A stretch of DNA of 64,000 nt from Candidatus Zixiibacteriota bacterium (GCA_024277855.1 JAJRUJ010000024.1:17568-81567); one strand, 5' to 3'; numbered from the stretch's first letter, positions 27,694 through 47,564 are shown. Numbers and translations are program-made. Notes: generated by a model not told the origin, from the sequence alone.

Positions 27694-27727
27694 GGCCCTT
27701 TCAAACCCCCGTTTGTGTGGGGGGCGG

Positions 27728-28108
27728 ATGTCGGTTATCTTGGGGAGCTTTTTGGTGTCTGAATACGCAGCCGTTGCTGTCTTTCTGCTGGTAGGCACGG
27801 GGATCGTCCTCTTTACTTTTGGCTTGGCCAAAGTTATCCGGCCATCCAATCCCACGCCAATCAAACTGGAAACATATGAATGTGGCGAAACCCCGTATGG
27901 GACCGCCGAGATTCAATATAATGTTCGCTTCTATATCTATGCCTTGCTGTTTGTTATCTTTGACGTCGAGGCGATTTTCCTTTTCCCCTGGGCGCTGGTC
28001 TACCGCAGTCTGGGGCTGTTCGCTTTTGTCGAGATGTTTATTTTCATCGCGATGTTGGTGTTTGGTTTGTTTTACGCCTGGAAAAAGGGCGTACTGAAAT
28101 GGGTTTAA
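27728..28108 (+). CDS. nuoA: NADH-quinone oxidoreductase subunit A
   Basis: ECGETPYG...RFYIYALLFVIFDVEAIFLFPWA is the canonical NuoA/ND3 signature. Confidence 0.85.
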   Translation: MSVILGSFLVSEYAAVAVFLLVGTGIVLFTFGLAKVIRPSNPTPIKLETYECGETPYGTAEIQYNVRFYIYALLFVIFDVEAIFLFPWALVYRSLGLFAFVEMFIFIAMLVFGLFYAWKKGVLKWV

Positions 28109-28137
28109 TGTAGCCGGTTCGCTCGGCAGACGATAAT

Positions 28138-29190
28138 ATGTTTGAACTTAGGGGATTAATCGACACGATCTGGGGCTGGATCGCCGGGTTGCTGGCCGAT
28201 ATCGGGCTATCTGCCGGTCTGGTCCAATTGATCGGTTACGCGATTATCGCCGCCGTGCTTTTCGGCGTCATCGCCCTTGTCGTGCTGTTTTTGGTCTGGT
28301 GGGAACGCAAGGTTTCGGCCAAAATGCAGGATCGCCTGGGCCCGATGCGGGTTGGCTGGCACGGGATAATCCAGACTATCGCCGACGCAATGAAGTTGCT
28401 GCAAAAAGAAGATATCACTCCGAAGAACATTGATTTCCCGATACATTTCTGGGCGCCGGTTATCACCTTCGTCGCCGCCTTCATGGTCTACGTGACTGTC
28501 CCTTTCGGTAAAGGTCTCATCGTCGCCGACTTAAATGTCGGCGTTCTTTATATTATTGCGATTACGACGTTCACGGTCATCGGCCTGCTGATGGCCGGCT
28601 GGGGTTCAAATAACAAATATGCGCTCCTGGGAGGGTTCCGCTCGGCGGCGCAGGTTGTCTCCTACGAAGTACCGCTCACGCTGTCTTTGCTGGGTGTGAT
28701 TATGATTTCCCAAACACTCTCGCTGGGGACGATAGTCGGCCAGCAGGACGGCTTCTTTAAGTGGTATGTCTGGCGGCAGCCGCTGGGTTTTGTGATTTTC
28801 TGGATTGCCGCCACTGCCGAATGTAACCGGACACCGTTTGACCTGCCGGAGGCCGACTCCGAACTGGTAGCCGGTTTTGTAACCGAATACTCCGGGATGA
28901 AATTCGCGATGTTCTTCCTGGCCGAATTTCTGAATATGTTTACCGCTTCGGTGGTTGCGGTCACCTTGTTTTTCGGTGGCTGGATGTCGCCGTTTGGCCC
29001 GGATTTCGGGCCGTCCTGGCTGTGGTTTTTCGCCAAGACGTTTTTCTTTGTGTTCGTGTTGATGTGGTTCCGCTGGACCTACCCACGATTGCGGGTCGAC
29101 CAGTTGATGGGATTTGCCTGGAAAGTGCTGTTGCCGCTGGCGTTTTTGAATATCCTGCTGACCGGCCTCGGCATTTACATTTTTGATTGA
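28138..29190 (+). CDS. nuoH: NADH-quinone oxidoreductase subunit H
   Basis: ERK(V)SAKMQDRLGP...G..Q..AD..KL motifs of NuoH/ND1. 29 nt after nuoA with no B/C/D genes between. Confidence 0.9.
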   Translation: MFELRGLIDTIWGWIAGLLADIGLSAGLVQLIGYAIIAAVLFGVIALVVLFLVWWERKVSAKMQDRLGPMRVGWHGIIQTIADAMKLLQKEDITPKNIDFPIHFWAPVITFVAAFMVYVTVPFGKGLIVADLNVGVLYIIAITTFTVIGLLMAGWGSNNKYALLGGFRSAAQVVSYEVPLTLSLLGVIMISQTLSLGTIVGQQDGFFKWYVWRQPLGFVIFWIAATAECNRTPFDLPEADSELVAGFVTEYSGMKFAMFFLAEFLNMFTASVVAVTLFFGGWMSPFGPDFGPSWLWFFAKTFFFVFVLMWFRWTYPRLRVDQLMGFAWKVLLPLAFLNILLTGLGIYIFD

Positions 29191-29202
29191 TGACCGGATG
29201 TG

Positions 29203-29706
29203 ATGATGACTGACGCATTTTTGACCAACCTGGCGTTTTATGTGATCTCGTTCTGCGTGATCGCCGGCGGTATCTTTGTGGTCAGTTCTCGGAATTTGTT
29301 CCATTCCGCGGTTTTTCTGGTCTTTACGCTCTTTTCGGTGGCCGGGATCTTTGTGATGCTGTCGGCCTACCTGTTGGCTGCGATCCAGGTGCTGGTTTAT
29401 GTCGGCGCGGTGGCGATGCTGATGATTTTTGGCGTGATGCTGACCACGCAGTTGTCTAATGTCCGGATCCGCTATATGAATGAACAGGTCTGGCCGGCAT
29501 TGTTGATCTGCGCGGGTTTCCTGGCCCTGCTGGTTTACGGCTTGACCGACACTCCTTTTGCTACCGGGAATGTGGCGGCCCCCGTTGAAGGAGCCAAAGC
29601 AATCGGCACATTGTTAATGACCAAGTATGTTCTGCCGTTTGAAATGGTTTCCGTCCTCCTGCTGGCGGCATTGGTCGGCGCGATAGTTATTGCCAAGAAG
29701 GATTGA
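29203..29706 (+). CDS. nuoJ: NADH-quinone oxidoreductase subunit J
   Basis: NuoJ/ND6-like 5-TM protein. Starts 9-15 nt after the nuoH stop, so no nuoI is present. Confidence 0.85.
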   Translation: MMTDAFLTNLAFYVISFCVIAGGIFVVSSRNLFHSAVFLVFTLFSVAGIFVMLSAYLLAAIQVLVYVGAVAMLMIFGVMLTTQLSNVRIRYMNEQVWPALLICAGFLALLVYGLTDTPFATGNVAAPVEGAKAIGTLLMTKYVLPFEMVSVLLLAALVGAIVIAKKD

Positions 29707-29713
29707 TAAGGTA

Positions 29714-30034
29714 ATGGGATCGGCGACAATCGGCTTAAATCATTTTCTGGTCCTCTCGGGAATCCTGTTTACGATTGGGATGTTCGGGGTATTGACCCGG
29801 CGCAACGCAATTGCAGTGTTGATGTCGACTGAATTGATGTTTAACGCGGTGAATATCACCCTGGTCGCTTTTTCCCGCTATCTGGCACCGGCGGCGTTTA
29901 CCGGTCAGATTGTCGCGTTTTTTACAATTATCATCGCAGCGGCCGAGGCCACTGTGGCATTGGCCATTGTCTTGTTGATTTATCGCAGTTTCCAGGGGAT
30001 CAATGTCGACCGGATCAATTTCATGAAATGGTAA
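29714..30034 (+). CDS. nuoK: NADH-quinone oxidoreductase subunit K
   Basis: ND4L signature ...LMSTELMFNAVNITLVAFS.... Confidence 0.85.
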   Translation: MGSATIGLNHFLVLSGILFTIGMFGVLTRRNAIAVLMSTELMFNAVNITLVAFSRYLAPAAFTGQIVAFFTIIIAAAEATVALAIVLLIYRSFQGINVDRINFMKW

Positions 30035-30051
30035 GAATGGTTCTGTAAATT

Positions 30052-31965
30052 ATGTTGCAAAACGCCTGGATCATACCCGCCCTGCCGCTGACGGCATTTG
30101 TGCTGATTGTGTTTTTCACCCATCGGCACCGGGCGCTCTCGGCCGGCATCTCGATTGCGGCAATTATCGGCGGATTCGCCTATTCGATTCCGGTCCTTTT
30201 CAGACTCATCGCCGACCACGGCCCGCATGAATATTTCTTCAACTGGCTGGAATTCGGGTCGTTTAATCTGGAAATTGGTCTTTTGATCGATCCACTGACG
30301 GCAGTGATGCTGTTGGTGGTAACGATTGTCTCATCGTGTGTGCAAATATACTCACTGGGATACATGCACGGCGATTCGCGTTATTCGCGGTATTTCGCCT
30401 ACTTGTCATTGTTTACGTTCTCAATGCTCGGGCTGGTTCTCTCGAACAACTTTGCGATGATTTTCATCTTCTGGGAACTGGTGGGGTTAACCTCATATCT
30501 GCTGATCGGTTTCTGGTTCGAGAAAAAATCCGCTTCCGACGCCGGCAAGAAAGCGTTCATCACCACCCGTACCGGCGATCTCGGTTTTATTGTCGGGATC
30601 TTGATTACTCTGTATGCCTGCGGTACGCTGAATTTCGGCGAGGTCTTCACCAAGATTGAAACCGGCGTTTTCGCCGGCGGGCTGGTCACCGCGGCGGCGA
30701 TTTTCATTTTTGCCGGTGCGGTCGGCAAATCGGCGCAGTTCCCGCTGCATGTCTGGCTGCCCGACGCGATGGAAGGTCCGACACCGGTTTCGGCGTTGAT
30801 CCACGCCGCCACGATGGTGGCCGCCGGGGTTTACCTGGTGGCGCGCGGGATGACGATATTTATGGCCTCGGATACCGCGGCGTTGGTTGTGGCGATTATC
30901 GGCATCACGACGTCGTTTATGGCCGCATCGATTGCGTTGGTGCAAATCGACATCAAACGGGTGCTGGCGTATTCGACGGTCAGCCAGCTTGGGTATATGA
31001 TCATGGCCCTGGGTCTCGGCGGGTATGGTGCCGGGACGTTCCACTTGATGACCCATGCATTTTTCAAATCCCTGCTCTTCCTCTGCGCCGGCTCAGTGAT
31101 CCATGCCGTCCACACCAACGACATGCTGGAGATGGGCGGGTTGAGCAAGAAGATGAAGATCACGGCAGCGACAATGTTCATTGCCTCGTTCTCCATCGCG
31201 GGGATCTTCCCCCTCTCGGGCTTCTGGTCCAAAGACGAGATTGTCGCTTCGACCATCGGCCACCCGATTTTCATGGTGCTGACGCTGCTGGTCGCCTTTA
31301 TGACCGCGTTCTATATGTTCCGGCTGTGTTTTTTAACCTTTACCGGGGCGCCGCGCGACCAGGAAAAATTCGACCACGCCCATGAATCGCCGAAGACAAT
31401 GACCTACCCGTTGATGTTTCTGGCGTTTTTGGCGGTATTTGCCGGCTGGGTGGGCATTCCCTGGTTGCCCCACAGCTGGTCGTCATTTGTCTATTACGGC
31501 GAAGTGGAGCACGCGAGTTTCCATTTCGGCCTGGCGGGAATTTCGCTTGCAATCGGGTTATCCGGGATTGGCCTGGCATATTTGATGTATTACAAGAAGT
31601 CGATCTCGGCGTAAAAAATCGCCGAGAAATTCAAACCGCTGTATATCCTGTTGTACAACAAATATTATTTCGATGAAATTTACGATGCAATCTTTGTCCA
31701 GCCCCTCTATGCCATGTGCGATTTCTGGTTCTGGTTTGACCAGAAAATCATCGACGGGCTGGTAAATGGCGCGGCAACGCTGACGATCTGGTGGGGCGAG
31801 ATCAAACGCTGGTTTGATGAGCACATTGTCGATGGCGCGGTCAATGGCGCCGGCATCACCATCCGTGGCACCGGCGGCCTGTTGCGTTTTGCCCAGACCG
31901 GCCGGTTGCAAAATTACGCCCTGGTCGTCTTTGCCGGGATCGTCCTGATTTGGTTTTTGGGGTAG
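30052..31965 (+). pseudogene. nuoL: NADH-quinone oxidoreductase subunit L, interrupted by a single in-frame TAA at 31612-31614 (637 codons if read through)
   Basis: Track ORFs 30052..31614 and 31651..31965 are in the same frame with no other stops between them. The second ORF carries the conserved NuoL C-terminal motif LLYNKYYFDEIYD and the region encoding the long lateral helix. There is no ribosome-binding site before the TTG of the second ORF. Confidence 0.8.
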
Positions 31966-32003
31966 ATAACACTCGAAGCGCGAAATAGAAAACGGAGCAG
32001 ACA

Positions 32004-33476
32004 ATGAGCGGTATACTTTCCTGGATGATTTTCATTCCCTTGATCGGCGGGGTAGTCATCCTCTTTTTCAACCAGGAACAGAAGACAGCCATCCGGAGTG
32101 TGGCGACCTTGACCACGTCGGTCGTGCTGGGGATTTCGTTTATCCTGCTGGCGCAATACAACCCCTCGAACCCCACAATGCAATTTGTGGAGAGGGCGTC
32201 CTGGATTCCGGTGTTGAATGTATACTATTATATCGGCGCCGACGGTATTTCTATCCCCATGTTGTTTCTGACGGCGTTGCTGTCGCTGATCTCCATTGTC
32301 GCCTCATTCGGCATTGAAAAACGGGTCAAAGAATATTTCGCATTCTTCCTGCTCCTGGAATGCGGAATGATGGGTGTTTTTGCCTCGTTGGATTTCTTCC
32401 TGTTCTATGTGTTCTGGGAAGTGATGCTCGTGCCGATGTATTTCTTAATCGGGGTCTGGGGCGGACCGCGGAAAGAATATGCCGCCATCAAGTTTTTCCT
32501 CTATACTTTATTCGGCTCGATATTCATGCTGGTCGGCATTCTGCTTTTGTATTTCAATACCACGCCGCACACGCTTTCGTTTACCGAGCTGGTTGCCGGC
32601 GGACCGACGCTTTCACATAATTTGCAGTTGCTGGTTTTTGTTTTCTTCTTCATCGCCTTTGCAATCAAGATTCCGGCCTGGCCATTCCATACCTGGCTGC
32701 CCGATGCGCATGTGGAAGCCCCGACCGCGGTGTCGGTCATTCTTGCCGGCGTGCTGCTGAAGATGGGCACTTACGGCCTCTTGCGGATTTCGCTCCCGAT
32801 GCTGCCCTATGGCACAAACTACTTCGTTTGGCCGATGGCGATTATCGGAGTGATCGGGATTATTTACGGCGCGCTGGTTTGCATGGCGCAGACGGACTTG
32901 AAGAAGCTGGTGGCCTATTCCTCGGTTTCACACATGGGCTACTGCCTGCTCGGGATAGCGGCGGTGACCTCGTTGGCGGGGATCGAGGGTTGCATGTTCC
33001 AGATGTTCTCGCACGGCTTGATCACCGGCGCGCTCTTCCTTTTAGTCGGCGTCATCTACGACCGGGCACATACACGCGATATCAACGCCTTTGGCGGACT
33101 CTGGTTGAAACTGCCGGTCTACTCCGGTGTGATGATCCTGTTTGTCATGGGCTCGCTCGGCTTGCCCGGGCTGTCCGGATTTGTTTCGGAATTCATGGTC
33201 TTTATCGGGTCGTTCCCGACGTTCACTTGGTTGACCGGTATTGCGGTTCTTGGTGTGTTGTTGACCGCCGGGTATTTCCTGCGAATGGTGCAACGGGTAT
33301 TCCTCGGCGAGTTTAATGAAAAGTGGGAGGGCAAGCTGCCCGACATGAAATTCCGCGAGATATTCACAATCGTCCCGTTGGCGGTTTTGATGATCGCGAT
33401 TGGGTTTTACCCGAAAATACTGACCTACTGGATGCAGCCAACACTGGAACATCTGATCAAATTGATTGCGCGTTAA
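32004..33476 (+). CDS. nuoM: NADH-quinone oxidoreductase subunit M
   Basis: ND4-type antiporter-like subunit, 490 aa. GGAG ribosome-binding site. Confidence 0.9.
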   Translation: MSGILSWMIFIPLIGGVVILFFNQEQKTAIRSVATLTTSVVLGISFILLAQYNPSNPTMQFVERASWIPVLNVYYYIGADGISIPMLFLTALLSLISIVASFGIEKRVKEYFAFFLLLECGMMGVFASLDFFLFYVFWEVMLVPMYFLIGVWGGPRKEYAAIKFFLYTLFGSIFMLVGILLLYFNTTPHTLSFTELVAGGPTLSHNLQLLVFVFFFIAFAIKIPAWPFHTWLPDAHVEAPTAVSVILAGVLLKMGTYGLLRISLPMLPYGTNYFVWPMAIIGVIGIIYGALVCMAQTDLKKLVAYSSVSHMGYCLLGIAAVTSLAGIEGCMFQMFSHGLITGALFLLVGVIYDRAHTRDINAFGGLWLKLPVYSGVMILFVMGSLGLPGLSGFVSEFMVFIGSFPTFTWLTGIAVLGVLLTAGYFLRMVQRVFLGEFNEKWEGKLPDMKFREIFTIVPLAVLMIAIGFYPKILTYWMQPTLEHLIKLIAR

Positions 33477-33494
33477 GTTGGTAATGGTGGGATA

Positions 33495-34958
33495 ATGAAT
33501 ATCTCGTTTGCGGAAATGTACGGCACACTGGGATTGATCGTTCCGGAGGTTGTCCTGCTGGTGCTGGCCGCGCTGGTCCTGACGATGGGGCTCAGCAAAC
33601 GGCGGTCCAGCGGCTCGCTGGCAATTATTTCGCTTTTCTCGCTGGCGGTCACCACCGTGCTGGTGCTGACTATCGGTGAGGGTACGGCATTCGGCGTGAT
33701 GTTCTTGGCCGATGGGTATGCGCGCGTTTTCAAATTGATCATCCTGTTGAGCGCCATGTTCACCGTGGCCTCATCGGTCGGCATCACCGAAAAGTTCCCC
33801 GCGCATAAAGGTGAGTATTACGGAGTTTTGCTTCTGTCGGTGGTCGGGATGATGTTTATGGTCTCGGCGGGCGAGTTGCTCACCATGTTTGTCGCCCTCG
33901 AGTTGTCCACAGTCTCGCTTTTCGTCCTGGCCGCCTTTAACAAACGCGATACCAAATCGGCCGAAGCCGGGCTGAAATATGTGATCCTCGGCTCAATTTC
34001 CTCGGCGGTGATGATTTACGGCATCGCGTTACTCTACGGCCTGACCGGAACAACTGAGATTGCCGGGCTGAAAGAAGGCCTGCAGAAGATGTATTTCGCC
34101 TCGGGCGGTTTCCCACGCGGCTTCTTTGTGGCGGTGATCCTCCTGGTTGCCGGGTTCGGATTCAAGCTTTCATTGGTTCCCTTCCATATGTGGGCGCCTG
34201 ATGTGTATGAAGGCGCCCCGACCCCGATCACGGCATATTTATCGGTGGCCTCCAAAGGCGCCGGGTTGGCGATATTCCTGCGCGTATTCTTCGGTGGGTT
34301 GATCAACGGCGCGGAAGTCTGGCTGCCGGTGTTGACTACGCTGGCCGCGCTGGCCATGATTGTCGGCAATATTACCGCAGTCGTGCAACGCAATATCAAG
34401 CGCATGCTGGCCTTTTCTTCGATTGCCCATATCGGGTATATTCTCGTCGCGGTTGTCTCCATTAACGCGCGCGGCGTATCGGCAATGACTTTCTATTTGT
34501 TTGTCTATCTCTTCGCCAACATGGGCGCTTTCATTTGTACTATCGTTTTTTCGCAGGCAACCAAATCCGATTTGATCCCCGACTACGCGGGGCTGTCCAA
34601 ACGTTCACCGGTTTTGGCGGCGTTTATGTCGATCTTCCTGCTCTCGCTGGCCGGGATTCCGCCGCTGGCCGGGTTTGTCGGCAAGTACTATGTTTTCATG
34701 GCGGCAATCCAACAGCAATATATATGGCTGGTAATAATCGCCTTGCTGACGTCGGTGATCGCGGTGTACTACTATGCGTATGTAATCTGGAAGATGTATT
34801 TCCCGAAAGAGGGCGACTACCCGACCGATCCGGTGCCGCTGCCGAAGACAATGGCCGTAATCCTTTCGGTGGCGACTGCCGGTATCTTTATTGTCGGTGT
34901 CTATCCGAAACCGTTTTTAGATTACGCCGTCGCCGCCGCGCGGACATTGCTGCCGTAG
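33495..34958 (+). CDS. nuoN: NADH-quinone oxidoreductase subunit N
   Basis: ND2-type antiporter-like subunit, 487 aa. Last gene of the cluster. Confidence 0.9.
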   Translation: MNISFAEMYGTLGLIVPEVVLLVLAALVLTMGLSKRRSSGSLAIISLFSLAVTTVLVLTIGEGTAFGVMFLADGYARVFKLIILLSAMFTVASSVGITEKFPAHKGEYYGVLLLSVVGMMFMVSAGELLTMFVALELSTVSLFVLAAFNKRDTKSAEAGLKYVILGSISSAVMIYGIALLYGLTGTTEIAGLKEGLQKMYFASGGFPRGFFVAVILLVAGFGFKLSLVPFHMWAPDVYEGAPTPITAYLSVASKGAGLAIFLRVFFGGLINGAEVWLPVLTTLAALAMIVGNITAVVQRNIKRMLAFSSIAHIGYILVAVVSINARGVSAMTFYLFVYLFANMGAFICTIVFSQATKSDLIPDYAGLSKRSPVLAAFMSIFLLSLAGIPPLAGFVGKYYVFMAAIQQQYIWLVIIALLTSVIAVYYYAYVIWKMYFPKEGDYPTDPVPLPKTMAVILSVATAGIFIVGVYPKPFLDYAVAAARTLLP

Positions 34959-34986
34959 GAAAATAAATTGGAATCGAGATTTGATA

Positions 34987-35010
34987 CCCCGTCTCTTGGC
35001 GGGGTTTTTT
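34987..35010 (+). terminator. Rho-independent terminator downstream of nuoN
   Basis: CCCCG-tctcttgg-CGGGG hairpin followed by TTTTTTGTT. Confidence 0.6.
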
Positions 35011-35213: not shown

Positions 35214-35264
35214 GGGTACCCCACTCCGCCGGGGCGGACGGTGGGATTCGGAATTCACGACCAA
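35214..35264 (+). repeat. REP-like palindromic element, copy B
   Basis: GGGTACCCCACTCCGCCGGGGCGGACGGTGGGATTCGGAATTCA. Overlaps the 3' end of the RAYT gene. Confidence 0.5.
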
Positions 35265-35788
35265 TCAGTACCAATCTTCAGCAGTCCGGATTCTTCTCCC
35301 AGATACGCACGGTAGCTGGACCACCGCCATTCCTCGATTCGTTGAGCAAACCCGGCCCGGACGGGGTTTGCGTGACAATATTGTATCTTCTCTTTAACGG
35401 TTTCAACTGTCCGACAGTTATGATCATAACATCGGCGTTGCCAGAAAACAAGTCGGATATTTCCACTTCGATTTACTTGCAGCCGCGATAGTCTGTAATC
35501 TTTCACGGTCCGCCATCGCTCCAGAATCTTCCTTGCCGAACGAGATTTGACTTCACCGATAACTCGTCCCAACTTGATTGCCGCATGCGGATAAATAACC
35601 AGATGCACATGATTGGGCATAACAACGTAGGACAGCACAGAGAAATTGTATTCCATTCTTGCAGCCTCAATTTCCTCAAGGAGAATGCCAATATCCTCTT
35701 CATTGGTCAGCAGATGATATTTTCGATGGCAAGCAAACGTCACGAATCGTGCTGTGCCGAGATTGTCATAATGATGGAGCCGAGTCAT
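35255..35788 (-). mobile_element. REP-associated tyrosine transposase (RAYT / IS200-like Y1 HuH transposase) gene
   Basis: HuH motif MPNHVHLVIY, and the C-terminal block FWQRRCYDHNCRT...YCHANPVRAGFAQRIEEWRWSSY matches the RAYT pattern (WQ.RF/Y...Y...NPV...W.WSS). Flanked by REP-like repeats on both sides. Confidence 0.75.
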
Positions 35789-38473: not shown

Positions 38474-40330
38474 TCAGCCATACCGCCAGCCGCGGTCGCG
38501 GGAGAGACGGGCGTTAGGTTTCCAGTCGGTGAGTTTGGTCGGGCTGGATTCTTTTTTGGGCGGTGGTTCGTCGGCTTTTTTAATTCCCGACATAAAGACT
38601 TTTGTCTGTTTTTCCGGCGCGATCGAATATGACTGCTCGGCCGCCCGGATGATCTCGGGCGCCAGGCCCTCTTCGGCGACTTTTTCGGTGAACTTGCGGC
38701 GGCCATCGACGATATCGCGAAGATAATTATCGATCTGGTTTTTCGAATAATATTTTTCGGGGACGTAGGTCGAGAGGTCGGTACCCTCGGCGGCGGTGAT
38801 TTCTTCGGTGCCGAACAAACTGGCGCGATACTGGTTGGTGCCGCGCAGGTCGCCGCGCTGGATTGCCGCCATCGTGTTGATCGGCACGCGTTCGGTCTTG
38901 CGCACCATTGTCTTATTGCCGTCGGGCGTTTTCTCGATAATTTCGCCCATCCCCCCGGTGTTATACTGATAGAAATGCACCTTGCCGGGATAGTTGGCGA
39001 CCAGGTCCATGATGATTTTATAAAAATGGTTCACCTTGTGGGCCCGGGAACCGACGATGAACGGGTCGGTGCCAACCGTGCGCACCGATTCGCCCGCCTT
39101 GGCCGGGTTGGAGGCATAACTGTGGCTCGATTCGCCCCAAAGATAGGCCAGCGTCGCCTGAATCGGGTTAAGCCGCTGGGAGAAGGTCATGATGGTATTC
39201 CGCCGGGTGATGAAAGCGAAAACCAGCCCGTCAAGTTCATCCAGCGGCGGCAGGTTGAGCGACGGATACCAAATGTCTTTCATCGAAAACGGGCCGCGGC
39301 CATGTTTGATTTTCAGCCGCTTGCGCGCGATCACCGCCCGGCCGTTGCCGCAAAGATTCTCATCGAGAAAATCGGGTGTGCCGTCGGCGCGAATCATCAC
39401 ATTTTCAAATAACGCGCTTTTGTGCACCAGCGAGTTATACATCGCCTCCTGCAGCTGGGGATCGACATCGGTCTTGACGAAATAATTAAACTCCGAACCA
39501 TAGGCCGAACCGTCGCTCTTGAGGAAACAGATATCATCCTGGCGAACATACGTGCGTTCGCCTTGCGACCAATCAAGTCCCAACTGGTGGCAGGACCAGG
39601 TGCTCTTGCCGGTGGCGGAAAGTCCGAACAGGAAAACACCGTATCTTTTCAACCTGTTCGTCTTCGGGTCGCGGGTGATCACGACTTTGGTGCCCGCATG
39701 CAAACCAAGCATCCCCAGCACATCGGCCGAATACATCCCCTGCCGGAGAAAACCCTTCTTGTCCTCGCCCATATAATCCGAACCGAGAACGATATTGAGT
39801 TTGTGCCCGGGCAACGCCAGCACCTGCTGGCGAATCTGATGTTCTTCCGGGATATGGATCAGCGTAAATTCCGGTCCCGGGGCTTTGGTTGCCGGCCCCA
39901 TAGTATTGCCCCACATGTAGGCCAGCCGGTGGTTTTTCAAATCGGCAACCGACATGTAGAGATTGCATTTGGGATTGTACCCGTCGTTCTCACCCATTTG
40001 CCGCCGGAGACGCACAAACGGCAGCGTTTCCATCAGGTGCAAAACTTTGTCGAGTTCATCGGGAGCCGAGGAGATGATCTTGCGTTTTTGTTCGCTCAGG
40101 TGAAATTCGCGGACTTTCTCCTCGCCGAGATAACAGGTCTTACCGCCGATCAGGCTGGAGACCGCCGAACGCCAGCCCCAGGAACCAAACTTGGTCTGTA
40201 TTCCGGTTTGCAGCGCAGGTTCACGCAAATCTTCGAGGGTGACGTCTTTGATATTCGGCCCGTTTAACCGGCGTTGAAGATCACGGTAAAACCGGTTGTA
40301 AAATTCGACATGGTACGGCGAGTCGGACAT
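38474..40330 (-). CDS. Phosphoenolpyruvate carboxykinase (ATP)-like protein, divergent 618-aa member
   Basis: Collinear ATP-PEPCK motifs: GSDYMGEDKKG (compare GSWYGGEMKKG), P-loop LFGLSATGKST (compare FFGLSGTGKTT), VRQDDICF (compare IGDDEHGW), YQYNTGGMG (compare NTGW). Length and several substitutions are atypical. Confidence 0.6.
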   Translation of the reverse strand: MSDSPYHVEFYNRFYRDLQRRLNGPNIKDVTLEDLREPALQTGIQTKFGSWGWRSAVSSLIGGKTCYLGEEKVREFHLSEQKRKIISSAPDELDKVLHLMETLPFVRLRRQMGENDGYNPKCNLYMSVADLKNHRLAYMWGNTMGPATKAPGPEFTLIHIPEEHQIRQQVLALPGHKLNIVLGSDYMGEDKKGFLRQGMYSADVLGMLGLHAGTKVVITRDPKTNRLKRYGVFLFGLSATGKSTWSCHQLGLDWSQGERTYVRQDDICFLKSDGSAYGSEFNYFVKTDVDPQLQEAMYNSLVHKSALFENVMIRADGTPDFLDENLCGNGRAVIARKRLKIKHGRGPFSMKDIWYPSLNLPPLDELDGLVFAFITRRNTIMTFSQRLNPIQATLAYLWGESSHSYASNPAKAGESVRTVGTDPFIVGSRAHKVNHFYKIIMDLVANYPGKVHFYQYNTGGMGEIIEKTPDGNKTMVRKTERVPINTMAAIQRGDLRGTNQYRASLFGTEEITAAEGTDLSTYVPEKYYSKNQIDNYLRDIVDGRRKFTEKVAEEGLAPEIIRAAEQSYSIAPEKQTKVFMSGIKKADEPPPKKESSPTKLTDWKPNARLSRDRGWRYG

Positions 40331-40768: not shown

Positions 40769-43114
40769 TTAACTGATTAATTCCTTAATGCGCGCTTTAA
40801 GCGCCTCGGGCGGGATCGCCGCAACATTGACTTTATACGCCTTGGCCACCCGGAAAAGCTGATGAAAATTTCGCCGTTGCAAGTCTTCGCCATCCGCCGA
40901 CGAATCGAATAAATATGGATTAAAAAACGGCTGCTGATAGTAAGGCGACATTCCTGCGCCGTCGGGCAGCCGGTATTTGCCCTCGGTGATATACTCCAGC
41001 GCATCTTCGGCCTCAAGTTTGTCCACAGCCGGGGCGTGGGGATCGTAGCCGAGTATTGCGACTGCGTGTATTTTTGAGCGTTTCACATATCCCGCCGGGC
41101 CGCCGATCCAGGCCGGGTCGACCAAGGCCCGCGAGTCTGTCGATCCCCAGTAGCAATAGGGTTCACCCAGGTCGAGCGGATTTTCTTCATCGGCCAGCGC
41201 CATGTTCGTCCAGTCGGCGCGGGTGGCTACGACATTTTCACACTTGCTTCGATCAAAAATCCGGGCATAGCGGGGGAACTCACGCACCATGGCAGTCTTC
41301 AGATAGAATTTTCGTTCCGGCGCATCGGCAATCGCCTCATTGCCCCGGTAGCGGACAAAGACCCAGTCGTTTGAGACAAAGCGGACATCATCATCCTCAA
41401 GGAACCGGGTGAAAAGTGAACCCCGTTTGGTGCCTTTTGGCCCGATCAACGCCAGTCCCCTGCCACCACAATCAACGCATGCGGCACGGAGACCGTGGAC
41501 ATCCAACAGCCGTTCGGAGGCCTGCGCCACCATCGCCAGCGCCCAACTGCGCACCTGGCCGTAGTAGGAGGTGTTAAACAAAATTGCCGTTTTCATTTCC
41601 GGACAGTAATAACCAAACGGCGTCCGGCCGGCAACCCCGTCGACCGCATAGATGATCGCGTGCGGTTCGAGGTCCGATTCAAGCTGTGCCGGATACCAGT
41701 TTTCGACCCAGAAATCATACAGGTGCGGGACATTGGTGCGCAACTGGACGATGATCCCGTTGATATTGGCATTCCATTCGAAATAGCGGTCGAACGGGAG
41801 CGCGGCCTCGGCCTGCTGAACCAGCGCGTCGCGTTCGTCAACAGAAATTTCGGTTTCGGCCTCGGTCATCCCGCGCGGATGAGTCATCACATTCTGCAAG
41901 GCCACCTGTTTGTATCTCGGCGATTCTTTCAACCGGGCCATGGCCTCGATGATCCGGTCGGTACCTTCCTCGATTTTCTCCATCGAGGTGGCATACGAAA
42001 TCCGGATGTTTTCATCGGCGCCGAAAGCACTGCCGGGCACCAGGGCGACTGCCGCCTCACGCAGGAGATAATAGGCCAGCGCGTAAGAATTGCGGATTTT
42101 CATCCCGTGATATTCAGTGTGATAATATTCAGCAGTGTTGGGCAACAGGTAGAACGCGCCCTGCGGCTGGTGACAGGAGATTCCCGGGATGCGAGTGAGC
42201 TTATTGAGCATATAATTACGCCGCGTCTGAAATTCCTGCCGCATCCGGTTGACTGCCGATTGGTCGCCGGTAAACGCCTCGACCGCCGCTTTCTGAGCGA
42301 TCGAGTTGGCGTTCGACGTTGTGTGCGACTGGATGATACTCATCGCCGCGACAAGGTCACGCGGTCCGGCGGCATACCCGATCCGCCAACCGGTCATCGC
42401 ATAGGCCTTGGAAACCCCATTGATGATCACCGCTTTGGCTTTAATCTTCTCGGAAAGAGCGGCGACCGAACAGAAACGAAAATCGTCATAGACGACTTTC
42501 TCATAAATCTCATCGGCGATAATCAGCAGTCCCTCGTCCACCGCGATCTCGCAAATTTCATGTAATTGGTCGCGGGTATAGGCCGACCCGGTCGGATTCG
42601 AGGGGTTGTTAATGACAATGGCCTTGGTGTTGAAACTGATATTGGCTTTTAACTGGTCGGGCGTAAGACGAAAACCGTTATCCTCCCGCGTGGGAACAAT
42701 CACCGGTTTGCCTTTGACCATCAATACCTGCTGCGGATACGACACCCAGTAAGGGGCGGGAATAATAACCTCTTCATTTTTGTTGATGGTCGCCAGAAAA
42801 AGATTGGCTATGCTCTGTTTGGCCCCGGAAGAGACAATGATCTCTTTGGCGTCGTACTCCACGCCATGATCTTCCCGCAACCGGGTCTGGATTGCCGCTT
42901 TCAGTTCGGGGATACCTTCGTTGCCGGTGTAGCGGGTGAAGTTATCGTCGATTGCCTGTTTGCCGGCGTTTTTGATATGTTCCGGGGTATGAAAATCCGG
43001 TTCACCGACAGAGAAATCGATAACGTCGATTCCCTCGGCTTTCATCGCCCGTGCCTTGGCGCTGATGCGCAGGGTGGGTGAAAGTTCCAGCCGTCCGATC
43101 CTGTTGGAAATCAT
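40769..43114 (-). CDS. Fusion protein: class-I aspartate aminotransferase (about 400 aa) + C-terminal HprK/PEPCK-like P-loop domain (about 380 aa)
   Basis: N-terminal half: GEPDF, NPSNPTG, SKAYAMTGWRIGY (PLP-Lys) of AspAT. C-terminal half: GRGLALIGPKGTKRGSL (degenerate Walker A) then FLEDDDVRFVSNDWV, paralleling HprK GDSGVGKSE...ADDRV and PEPCK GLSGTGKT...IGDDEH. Single uninterrupted ORF. Confidence 0.7.
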   Translation of the reverse strand: MISNRIGRLELSPTLRISAKARAMKAEGIDVIDFSVGEPDFHTPEHIKNAGKQAIDDNFTRYTGNEGIPELKAAIQTRLREDHGVEYDAKEIIVSSGAKQSIANLFLATINKNEEVIIPAPYWVSYPQQVLMVKGKPVIVPTREDNGFRLTPDQLKANISFNTKAIVINNPSNPTGSAYTRDQLHEICEIAVDEGLLIIADEIYEKVVYDDFRFCSVAALSEKIKAKAVIINGVSKAYAMTGWRIGYAAGPRDLVAAMSIIQSHTTSNANSIAQKAAVEAFTGDQSAVNRMRQEFQTRRNYMLNKLTRIPGISCHQPQGAFYLLPNTAEYYHTEYHGMKIRNSYALAYYLLREAAVALVPGSAFGADENIRISYATSMEKIEEGTDRIIEAMARLKESPRYKQVALQNVMTHPRGMTEAETEISVDERDALVQQAEAALPFDRYFEWNANINGIIVQLRTNVPHLYDFWVENWYPAQLESDLEPHAIIYAVDGVAGRTPFGYYCPEMKTAILFNTSYYGQVRSWALAMVAQASERLLDVHGLRAACVDCGGRGLALIGPKGTKRGSLFTRFLEDDDVRFVSNDWVFVRYRGNEAIADAPERKFYLKTAMVREFPRYARIFDRSKCENVVATRADWTNMALADEENPLDLGEPYCYWGSTDSRALVDPAWIGGPAGYVKRSKIHAVAILGYDPHAPAVDKLEAEDALEYITEGKYRLPDGAGMSPYYQQPFFNPYLFDSSADGEDLQRRNFHQLFRVAKAYKVNVAAIPPEALKARIKELIS

Positions 43115-45161: not shown

Positions 45162-47564
45162 TCAGCCGGTGACCGGCGTCTTCTTTTCCCGCGCCCGGGC
45201 AAAGTCAATGATCGCCTTGAGTTGACCCTCGGCATGGACCCCGGCCTCCTCCAGGACTTTTTCGGCTTTACCGCTGCCCAGAAATCGACCGGCACGGAAC
45301 GGATAGAGTGTGCGCCGCAGGCCATCGTTTGTGCGAACCCAATAATACATCGTCGGCAGGGTGAAATCGGTAATCCCCATCGATTCAAGCGCCAGTTTTT
45401 CCGGGAAGATTTCCTCACGTTCACTCGCCGACAATGCGGCGAACAACTCCATGCTCGTCACATAGAAGATGTTGAAATTGTAGCCCTGTTTCTCGAGTTC
45501 GGGAAGGACATCATTCAGGAAAATTGTCGCTACCGCATTCCCCTGCAAAACCAGCGTACCATCATAGCGGTCGGCATTGGGGTCGGCCCGGCGCAGGGCA
45601 TAGATCCCCTTCACCGCGGCCGTGACCGGCGGCAAGCCGAGTTTATTCCGATCAAGAATAGTATCCGCCGGACGAGTTACAAACGGCGCCAGGATAGCCG
45701 GCCGCGCCTGCAAACCGGCAACCAACAACGGCCAGACTTCGTTGGCGTCCCATGGCGTCAGGGTGATCAGGATACTTTTGGGAAAACATTCCTGTAATAA
45801 TTGCAGTGGCTGCGGATCGGCGTGAGTGGGACCGTCCTCCCCGGTTTTTGGCCCGACGTGACCATTCAGCATAATCCAGGTATTGTACGGCAACCCGGTA
45901 AGATCCCGCCGTGACTGTTGACCGATGCCGTGGGTACGCGCCGGTACATGCTCCATCGCGGCCAGGAAAGCGCCATAGGAAGCGGTGATCCCGATGTGCC
46001 GGCCAAAGCTCGATACGCCGGCCATAAACCCGCCCATCGCATCTTCACAGATTCCCCCAACCGCAACCAGGCGGGAACCCGGGTTGTTTTTGGCATGGAA
46101 AAGCCCCTCGGCGATATCTTTGTTAATTGCCGCGATACTGGTCGAACCGGCCAGGTCGGCCGCCGTGGCGATCATCGCGCCGGATGAGTGTTTCGTCAGG
46201 TGATTGATCGCCGAGCCGAGCGCACCCCGCAAGGTTACCGAATCGCCGGGTTTAAAGACCAATGTCGCCGGTGCATTATCCACGTTGATCGCATTGTTGT
46301 CATAGAGCTTGGCCAGCTTCGGCGCATTCTCGCGCGGCGACCGTTTTCGCGCATCGAGACGCTCTTTGGCCTTGGCGATATTTTCGCCGAAGAATTGCGA
46401 GATTTCGCTGTTTTTTTCGATGACTGATCGCAGGGCCATCAGTGTGTCGTAGAAATTCTGTTCGACATTTTTGGGCGAGTTGTCACCTTCAATTCGGGGT
46501 AGTTCGACACCGAAGGCCGTCTCAAATTCTTTCAACGATTTGTAATAACCGTCCGAGCCGTATTTGTGGCCGGCCCCGTGCGATGCTCTCCCCTCGATGC
46601 CGTATTTCCAGCCCTTAACCGTTTTGTATACCACGGCGGTGGGCTGTCCATTGTCTATCGATAGGGCCAGCTTTTGCCCGGTGAGGACCTGACGAAAATC
46701 AAAACCGTCGGCAACGTCAATGACATTCCAATCATGGAAATACAGCAACTCCGCCGGGTTCCACTGCACATATTCACCCGGGCCGTCGGCATTGAGACAG
46801 ACATGGTTTGAGTCGATCGACGCCTGATTGAAATCGATATGCATGACGATATTGTTCAATCCGGCACTGGCCGCCGCGGCAATCGCTTCATGGACCCGCC
46901 CCGGAGTCATCCCGCCCTCGCCTTCGAGGACATGGATTTTCGGTGCATCGCTGCCATAATAATCCAATGCGCCCATGGCCAGACCAAAAGAGGTCGGGAC
47001 ACCGACACCACTCGGCCCGGTTGCAATCTTAATAAACGGCACCATGCAGGTCGGATGACCATCCAGCGCCTTGGCCTTGAACCTCTCAAACAACGGGGTG
47101 TGTTGCGTCGGGTTACGGCGAAACCCGAGCAGGTCCTCCAAACGAAGTTGGAATTTCTCTTCGGCCAGCATTTCCGGTCGACCGGCGCGCGCCAACTCAT
47201 TGCGCAGCGCCCACATTGCGTACAGACCCATTGCCTTATGCCCGGCCGCATACGACAGCAGGTCAGAATCGTCCCGGCTCGGGTCGGAAAGATCGTAATC
47301 CATCCAGCGGTAAATCAGACCTTCGACAATATGCCCCGAGGAGATTGAACCTCCGGGATGCCCCGAAGTCGGGACGAAATTATAGAGTATTGCGCACAGG
47401 GTGCGGTAGATGATATCCATCCGCTCCCACAACCTCTGCTCGTCGGCAGAAAGTGAAATTGCCGCCGCGTCGGTTTTCTCGGAGATTTGATAATAAATCG
47501 CCCGCCGGTCCAGATACTTAATCTGGGTGGGGGTGACACCGGATACGGCTTGATCATTTGCCAT
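45162..47564 (-). CDS. Transketolase-family thiamine-diphosphate enzyme, atypically long (800 aa)
   Basis: GHPGGS (TK His motif), TPP-binding EGEGG...N block, GEDGPTHADPQ (TK signature GEDGPTHQ). About 140 aa longer than canonical Tkt. Confidence 0.6.
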   Translation of the reverse strand: MANDQAVSGVTPTQIKYLDRRAIYYQISEKTDAAAISLSADEQRLWERMDIIYRTLCAILYNFVPTSGHPGGSISSGHIVEGLIYRWMDYDLSDPSRDDSDLLSYAAGHKAMGLYAMWALRNELARAGRPEMLAEEKFQLRLEDLLGFRRNPTQHTPLFERFKAKALDGHPTCMVPFIKIATGPSGVGVPTSFGLAMGALDYYGSDAPKIHVLEGEGGMTPGRVHEAIAAAASAGLNNIVMHIDFNQASIDSNHVCLNADGPGEYVQWNPAELLYFHDWNVIDVADGFDFRQVLTGQKLALSIDNGQPTAVVYKTVKGWKYGIEGRASHGAGHKYGSDGYYKSLKEFETAFGVELPRIEGDNSPKNVEQNFYDTLMALRSVIEKNSEISQFFGENIAKAKERLDARKRSPRENAPKLAKLYDNNAINVDNAPATLVFKPGDSVTLRGALGSAINHLTKHSSGAMIATAADLAGSTSIAAINKDIAEGLFHAKNNPGSRLVAVGGICEDAMGGFMAGVSSFGRHIGITASYGAFLAAMEHVPARTHGIGQQSRRDLTGLPYNTWIMLNGHVGPKTGEDGPTHADPQPLQLLQECFPKSILITLTPWDANEVWPLLVAGLQARPAILAPFVTRPADTILDRNKLGLPPVTAAVKGIYALRRADPNADRYDGTLVLQGNAVATIFLNDVLPELEKQGYNFNIFYVTSMELFAALSASEREEIFPEKLALESMGITDFTLPTMYYWVRTNDGLRRTLYPFRAGRFLGSGKAEKVLEEAGVHAEGQLKAIIDFARAREKKTPVTG

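Follow-up and report, generated by a model that had tools for sequence, protein, structure and literature searches.

A premature in-frame TAA at codon 521 of an otherwise intact nuoL gene in a Candidatus Zixiibacteriota genome

Does a complex I gene that is divided by a single in-frame stop codon carry a genuine nonsense mutation, or does the stop reflect an error in the consensus, a gene that has been split or a codon that is read through? This question is raised by nuoL in a 64,000-nt stretch of DNA from Candidatus Zixiibacteriota bacterium (GCA_024277855.1 JAJRUJ010000024.1:17568-81567), which is referred to as the window in the following. A sequence-only reading of the window had offered these four explanations as options. 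They could be narrowed and are not equally likely, as a conserved split is refuted and read-through is without a supporting signal. The explanation preferred here, with a probability of about 0.5, is a recent lineage-specific nonsense substitution by which an Asp or Glu codon became TAA at codon 521, probably via GAA and with no programmed signal. The premature stop most likely has an ordinary origin, in a recent mutation or a base-calling error, without any new biological mechanism.

The nuoL reading frame and its operon

The nuoL gene (30052..31965, + strand) runs from the ATG at 30052 to the TAG at 31963-31965 as a single frame of 638 codons, in which the TAA at 31612-31614, codon 521, is the sole internal stop. 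It had been pointed out beforehand that only this TAA separates two ORFs in the same frame, and this is confirmed: the nuoL frame contains both the 520-aa ORF 30052..31614 and the 104-aa ORF 31651..31965, which starts with TTG, and no stop occurs in the 12 codons that lie in between (KIAEKFKPLYIL). The description of the gene as otherwise intact was also borne out, with no further stops or indels and a read-through length of 637 positions, which the closest intact relatives (637 aa) match without gaps. In the public collection, the two pieces are present as a 520-aa protein (P0007) and a 104-aa protein (P0121) with one member each, both from the same 85,893-bp NCBI contig.

The 520-aa N-terminal piece reaches 634.2 bits against the NCBIfam NuoL profile NF005141 (cutoff 556) and covers profile positions 3-513, and the C-terminal piece, comprising the 116 codons after the TAA, matches profile positions 521-579; an intact relative (P0001) scores 712 bits. 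Since the two pieces match consecutive parts of one NuoL profile, a chance ORF pattern does not account for them. Within the N-terminal piece, the Pfam domains Proton_antipo_N (PF00662, 2e-22) and Proton_antipo_M (PF00361, 1.2e-79) were found. Regarding membership in the NuoL family (NF005141, TIGR01974), the gene product exceeds the equivalog cutoff, contains the antiporter domains and is encoded at the nuoK/nuoM location. The C-terminal extension is not part of the same polypeptide, its coding sequence being collinear but located beyond the TAA at 31612-31614. The best solved-structure match of NuoL was NdhF of cyanobacterial NDH-1 (6hum_F), ahead of NuoL/Nqo12 chains.

Helix positions were taken from the AlphaFold model of P0001 (637 aa; mean pLDDT 77), which is gap-free against the window frame (Table 1). 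Codon 521 is placed by this model where TM15 borders on the lateral helix; a product of 520 aa is predicted to keep the whole antiporter module. The downstream piece had been proposed to carry a conserved motif together with the lateral helix and the last TM. This agrees with the position of the motif LLYNKYYFDEIYD, encoded at 31648-31686, 3' of the TAA, and with the P0001 model. This helix is considered to act as a clamp on the antiporter-like subunits, holding them together (PMC5938582; PMC3046159).

The gene is part of a nuo cluster at 27713..35005 (+) with the order nuoA-H-J-K-L-M-N, and Pfam covers 95-100 % of each nuo profile. The closest relative, L001, shows the same order, with the same HD-domain and pseudouridine-synthase genes ahead of its nuo cluster as in the window, and the shorter contigs of L002 and L003 show J-K-L-M(-N). 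The scan of long ORFs over the 64-kb window revealed no nuoB, C, D, I, E, F or G, and only membrane-arm genes are present in the cluster.

Several further observations were made downstream of the cluster. An IS200-like Y1 transposase ORF (35255-35788, -; PF01797, 4e-10; 177 aa) lies about 250 bp past the nuoN terminator. Three enzymes encoded on the minus strand are unusually long, namely a 781-aa protein (40769-43114) with an aminotransferase class I/II domain only at residues 30-388, a 618-aa protein (38474-40330) that matches only part of PEPCK_ATP, and an 800-aa transketolase-like protein (45162-47564). The extra regions of all three are without a Pfam match.

Table 1. Features of the nuo cluster and of the interrupted nuoL gene, in window coordinates.
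Feature	Position	Strand	Basis
nuoA (start uncertain)	27713-28108	+	Pfam
nuoH	28138-29190	+	Pfam
nuoJ	29200-29706	+	Pfam
nuoK	29714-30034	+	Pfam
nuoL, N-terminal 520 codons: antiporter-like module TM1-14 and TM15	30052..31611	+	NF005141, Pfam, 81-85 % identity to intact relatives
TM15, last helix before the stop, residues 492-514	31525..31593	+	P0001 AlphaFold model, gap-free homology
Linker with two short helices, residues 515-537			P0001 AlphaFold model
Perfect 8-bp hairpin TCTCGGCG / TAAAAAAT / CGCCGAGA, TAA in A-rich 8-nt loop	31604..31627	+	Fold, z-score -3.05
Premature TAA, codon 521	31612..31614	+	Sequence; sense residue in relatives
nuoL, 116 stop-free codons beyond the TAA: linker, lateral helix, TM16	31615..31962	+	NuoL profile positions 521-579
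TTG (Leu534), only plausible restart codon, start of 104-aa P0121	31651..31653	+	ORF list; no SD upstream
Lateral (horizontal) helix HL, residues 538-615, single continuous 78-residue helix	31663..31896	+	P0001 model
TM16, residues 618-636	31903..31959	+	P0001 model
nuoM	32004-33476	+	Pfam
nuoN	33495-34958	+	Pfam
Strong terminator-like hairpin 3' of nuoN	34986-35005	+	Terminator scan

Codon 521 in relatives and the origin of the stop

The closest homologues share 81-85 % amino acid identity with the window's protein and are all uninterrupted, five of them being exactly 637 aa long and gap-free against the read-through translation. Those homologues for which a source name is given are annotated as Zixibacteria MAGs. 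The column of the stop is read through in 119 of 120 homologous proteins, and the sole protein ending there is the window's own P0007. A tblastn search across residues 480-560 showed 83 of the 84 fetched relative loci to be continuous and stop-free, with the remaining locus ending together with its contig. The interruption is therefore unique to this genome, and a conserved split, for which sister genomes divided at the same place had been named as the criterion, is refuted. At five loci (L017, L039, L041, L062 and L067), the tblastn NuoL spans extend over 2.5-2.8 kb compared to the usual ~1.9 kb, which may reflect insertions or joined paralogue matches; their alignments are continuous across the TM15/lateral-helix boundary.

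At the stop column, the 119 homologues carry Asp (67), Glu (31), Gln (11), Ala (4), Val (4) or Asn (2). Judged from this alignment, the residue at position 521, in the short linker that connects TM15 with the lateral helix, is acidic and variable. A comparison of orthologue codons, which had been proposed as a check, was carried out and yielded the sense codon GAC (Asp) in four relatives (L001, L002, L003 and L084; ~78 % nucleotide identity), two changes away from TAA. Since two base changes separate GAC from TAA, an intermediate encoding Glu, Gln, Lys or Tyr must be assumed, and this assumption counts against a real allele. GAA (Glu, in 31 of the 120 proteins) is the likely one-step intermediate toward TAA.

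The residue distribution also bears on the possibility of a sequencing, assembly or consensus error, in which case the true codon would be one step from TAA (GAA, CAA, AAA or TAC/TAT) and NuoL a normal protein of 637 aa. Such an error is possible, although it is not the favored explanation. At the column, Asp is followed in frequency by Glu and then Gln, both one step from TAA. In addition, the gene is otherwise perfect, with the length of its relatives and no gaps, no decay downstream of the stop and an intact operon. The affected base lies beside an A6 run inside an inverted repeat, where a miscall is plausible, and the MAG from which the sequence comes has just one record. On the other hand, annotation of the other 44 long ORFs in the 64 kb with Pfam revealed none that is visibly split or truncated; most give near-complete domain matches, a few match part of a profile only and seven have no match. 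This speaks for a real allele and indicates that the assembly is not generally error-prone. Pfam annotation was used here because a scan for adjacent open segments in the same frame is too noisy as a pseudogene detector at 54 % GC. Furthermore, the lesion is a substitution and not a homopolymer indel, which is typical of long-read errors, and this lowers the error hypothesis without removing it. Among random substitutions, no more than a few percent give rise to a stop, so that the prior for such an error within one window would also be low.

A real allele and a consensus error would look identical in this record, and the collections contain no same-species sequence, which weakens the case for the allele. 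Exact-protein look-ups with the 520-aa product, P0007, nuoM and nuoK returned no contig of the same species or from an independent assembly, and a degenerate DNA pattern spanning the stop had 0 matches in metagenome contigs. A second metagenome pattern scan found only another relative, with 78 % identity and GAC, and the best hit in a scan of species-representative genomes had 69 % identity. Thus, the look-ups, the two pattern scans and the genome scan yielded nothing beyond 78 % identity in DNA or 85 % in protein. Two further points argue against a real allele. Fixation of a loss-of-function allele is unlikely for a complex I subunit whose operon is conserved, and the stop lies exactly at a domain boundary (~2-4 % of the gene), where it is least destructive and where a tolerated split would look alike.

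The region downstream of the stop was compared with that of the relatives. None of the 22 columns that are at least 90 % conserved is changed, and most intact relatives show changes in 0-2 of the 22. The dN/dS of this region is 0.075-0.13 against the relatives and 0.12-0.14 among the intact relatives, a test that is low in power because dS exceeds 1 between the available relatives and the nearest is only 78 % identical in DNA. Within the limits of this low power, the features of a decaying pseudogene are absent, as there are no extra stops or indels, the conserved columns are retained and dN/dS is unchanged. The stop event would accordingly count as young, though only on the scale of relatives that are saturated at synonymous sites. 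Because of the weak test, the absence of decay is equally expected of a very recent mutation.

If the stop is the recent nonsense substitution preferred here, ribosomes would terminate at 31612-31614 and release a 520-aa NuoL with the full antiporter module, lacking the lateral helix and TM16 that clamp the membrane arm. The 116 downstream codons would remain mostly untranslated. Both nuoM, which has a GGAG upstream, and nuoN would presumably still initiate independently. Complex I of the organism, or of the strain represented in this consensus, would as a result be weakened or coupled less well, and the nonsense event would be too young for decay to show.

Recoding and separate translation of the downstream piece

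The TAA is located in the loop of a perfect 8-bp hairpin (Table 1). A mutational hotspot in the hairpin loop is one possibility for this coincidence. The TAA is also flanked by two Ala codons, GCG just before it and GCC 9 nt after it. These features could be taken as signs of programmed recoding, either by read-through at UAA-A or by a bypass from GCG (31609-31611) to GCC (31621-23) over the hairpin, which would give a near full-length NuoL. The position of the UAA in the loop and the folding z-score of -3.05 are in favor of this explanation, and the Ala codons resemble take-off and landing sites, an arrangement reportedly similar to that of phage T4 gene 60. Nevertheless, programmed recoding is highly improbable. 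Perfect 8-bp hairpins occur at chance frequency in the window, with 17 register hits (~11 distinct sites) compared to 10.9 hits per simulation. The hairpin is present in the window only, since its arms are not complementary in the relatives, and no relative shares either the hairpin or the stop (119 other proteins and 84 loci without a stop there). The terminator scan did not classify the hairpin at the stop as terminator-like, and Rfam gave 0 matches for the window at gathering thresholds and 0 for the stop region at E<=1. The hairpin was therefore rejected as a signal and is treated as incidental. No tRNA genes, and hence no suppressor tRNA, are present in the 64-kb window. A further argument against recoding is that both release factors recognize UAA, which leaks less than any other stop codon in bacteria.

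A reassignment of TAA as a sense codon is excluded. The stops of the 45 long ORFs are TGA in 19, TAG in 15 and TAA in 11 cases, and nuoM is terminated normally by TAA, its end (...LIAR-TAA) falling on the residue at which the L001 and L002 orthologues end as well. The earlier argument against global recoding, according to which all three codons are used as normal stops in the window, therefore holds.

Another explanation is a tolerated fission, in which the 520-aa module and a separately translated piece of ~104 aa, restarting at TTG 31651, would assemble in trans. The stop is located on the linker between TM15 and the lateral helix, and a restart at this TTG, 37 nt downstream, would retain the whole motif, the helix and TM16. 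The downstream piece also shows no decay. Despite these points, a fission is unlikely and lacks positive support. The gene is split here in no relative, and the lack of decay is equally expected from a very recent mutation. Moreover, TTG 31651 is an ordinary ancestral Leu codon, found as the same codon in all four relatives (L001, L002, L003 and L084), so that no start codon has been gained, and no RBS has been gained either.

The sequence-only reading had concluded that the downstream fragment is unlikely to be translated because it has no ribosome-binding site. The observation is correct, as there is no SD at TTG 31651, but the conclusion drawn from it is weak. An SD core (GGAG/GAGG/AGGA) was detected in only 15 of the 45 window genes, counted from longest-ORF starts with the core within 20 nt upstream, and nuoL itself is without one, as are nuoH, nuoJ and nuoN. 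SD-independent initiation appears to be common in this genome, and the missing SD does not disqualify a restart here.

Naturally split versions of the gene were sought using the downstream piece alone as the query. This search returned 35 short proteins, mostly with internal Met starts on contigs of ~1 kb, and most of these short standalone lateral-helix proteins look like contig-end artefacts, which is another point against a fission. The three candidates on long contigs were examined in their genomic context, and two of them were rejected as natural splits. In the long-read contig L088, frameshifts affect many of the nuo genes. L089 (1-2730) is a Logan contig on which nuoJ'-nuoK-nuoL(N-part) has the opposite orientation to nuoL(C-part)-hicB-nuoM-nuoN. 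As the breakpoint is also the end of the contig, two pieces were probably joined here in inverted orientation into a chimera. Between nuoL and nuoM, this contig carries a gene for a HicB-like antitoxin.

A third candidate, represented by L085-L087, was rejected as a designed split because nuoL is disrupted there by a mobile-element insertion. The gene is interrupted at query codon 534 by an insertion of ~1.86 kb with an ISNCY transposase (498 bits, cutoff 325). In L086 (430-4333), this leaves a 569-aa N-part ending with ...IYTLM* and a 110-aa ORF starting with MYHKYYVDEIYD, and an ATG is duplicated at both junctions. ORFs of this 110-aa type were found on six contigs from several samples. Both flanks of L085 and L086 differ outside the IS and the C-part, so the assemblies disagree with each other across the IS. 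Downstream, L085 and L087 show two nuoM-like genes (525 and 578 aa) ahead of nuoN. As an independent interruption 13 codons away from the TAA, in another lineage and recovered repeatedly, this case can be counted in favor of a tolerated fission.

Significance and comparison with known systems

For most purposes, the finding matters little, since a premature stop in a single genome is routine in MAGs, where it may represent a young pseudogene, a strain nonsense allele or a consensus error. It is nevertheless worth an annotation flag that the 520-aa and 104-aa proteins of the public record belong to one nuoL. In metabolic reconstructions, complex I of this organism should be considered neither certainly functional nor certainly lost until the base is verified.

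Compared to an ordinary young pseudogene or nonsense allele, the window's nuoL is alike in having one disabling substitution in one genome and a gene that is intact in all relatives. It differs from an ordinary young pseudogene in showing no second lesion and no relaxed constraint. The gene is therefore either an extremely recent pseudogene or not a pseudogene, which would imply an error or a tolerated split.

The IS-disrupted nuoL of L085-L087 is interrupted in the same linker (codon 534 compared to 521) and is likewise divided into a large N-terminal ORF and a standalone one of ~110 aa. In contrast to the point mutation described here, the cause there is an insertion, and the lineage is distant (~50 % amino acid identity). 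If a tolerated fission were true, the ISNCY interruption would mark the linker as a naturally permissive site for splitting complex I.

In the membrane-bound hydrogenase of Pyrococcus, MbhI is a separate small subunit with an amphipathic lateral helix and one TM. This arrangement is an ancient and conserved gene organisation with its own start signals. The two nuoL pieces would resemble such a separate lateral-helix subunit if both were made, but their separation consists of one stop in one genome, with no gained start or RBS.

Engineered C-terminal truncations of NuoL in E. coli reportedly reduce the proton stoichiometry. Truncations of this type are reportedly also the subject of Torres-Bacete et al. 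2011. According to the summary of Steimle et al. 2011 in PMC8209014, engineered variants of this kind still allowed the complex to assemble. In the E. coli truncations as in the window's gene, the antiporter module of NuoL is followed by neither the lateral helix nor TM16. The window's gene differs from them in that its TAA is natural and belongs to an uncultured Zixibacteria-like genome, the removed coding sequence is intact downstream, and the case is known from sequence alone. If the stop is real and the organism respires via complex I, it would constitute a natural experiment on the removal of the NuoL lateral helix or its supply in trans, a question that, to our knowledge, has so far been addressed only with engineered E. 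coli mutants.
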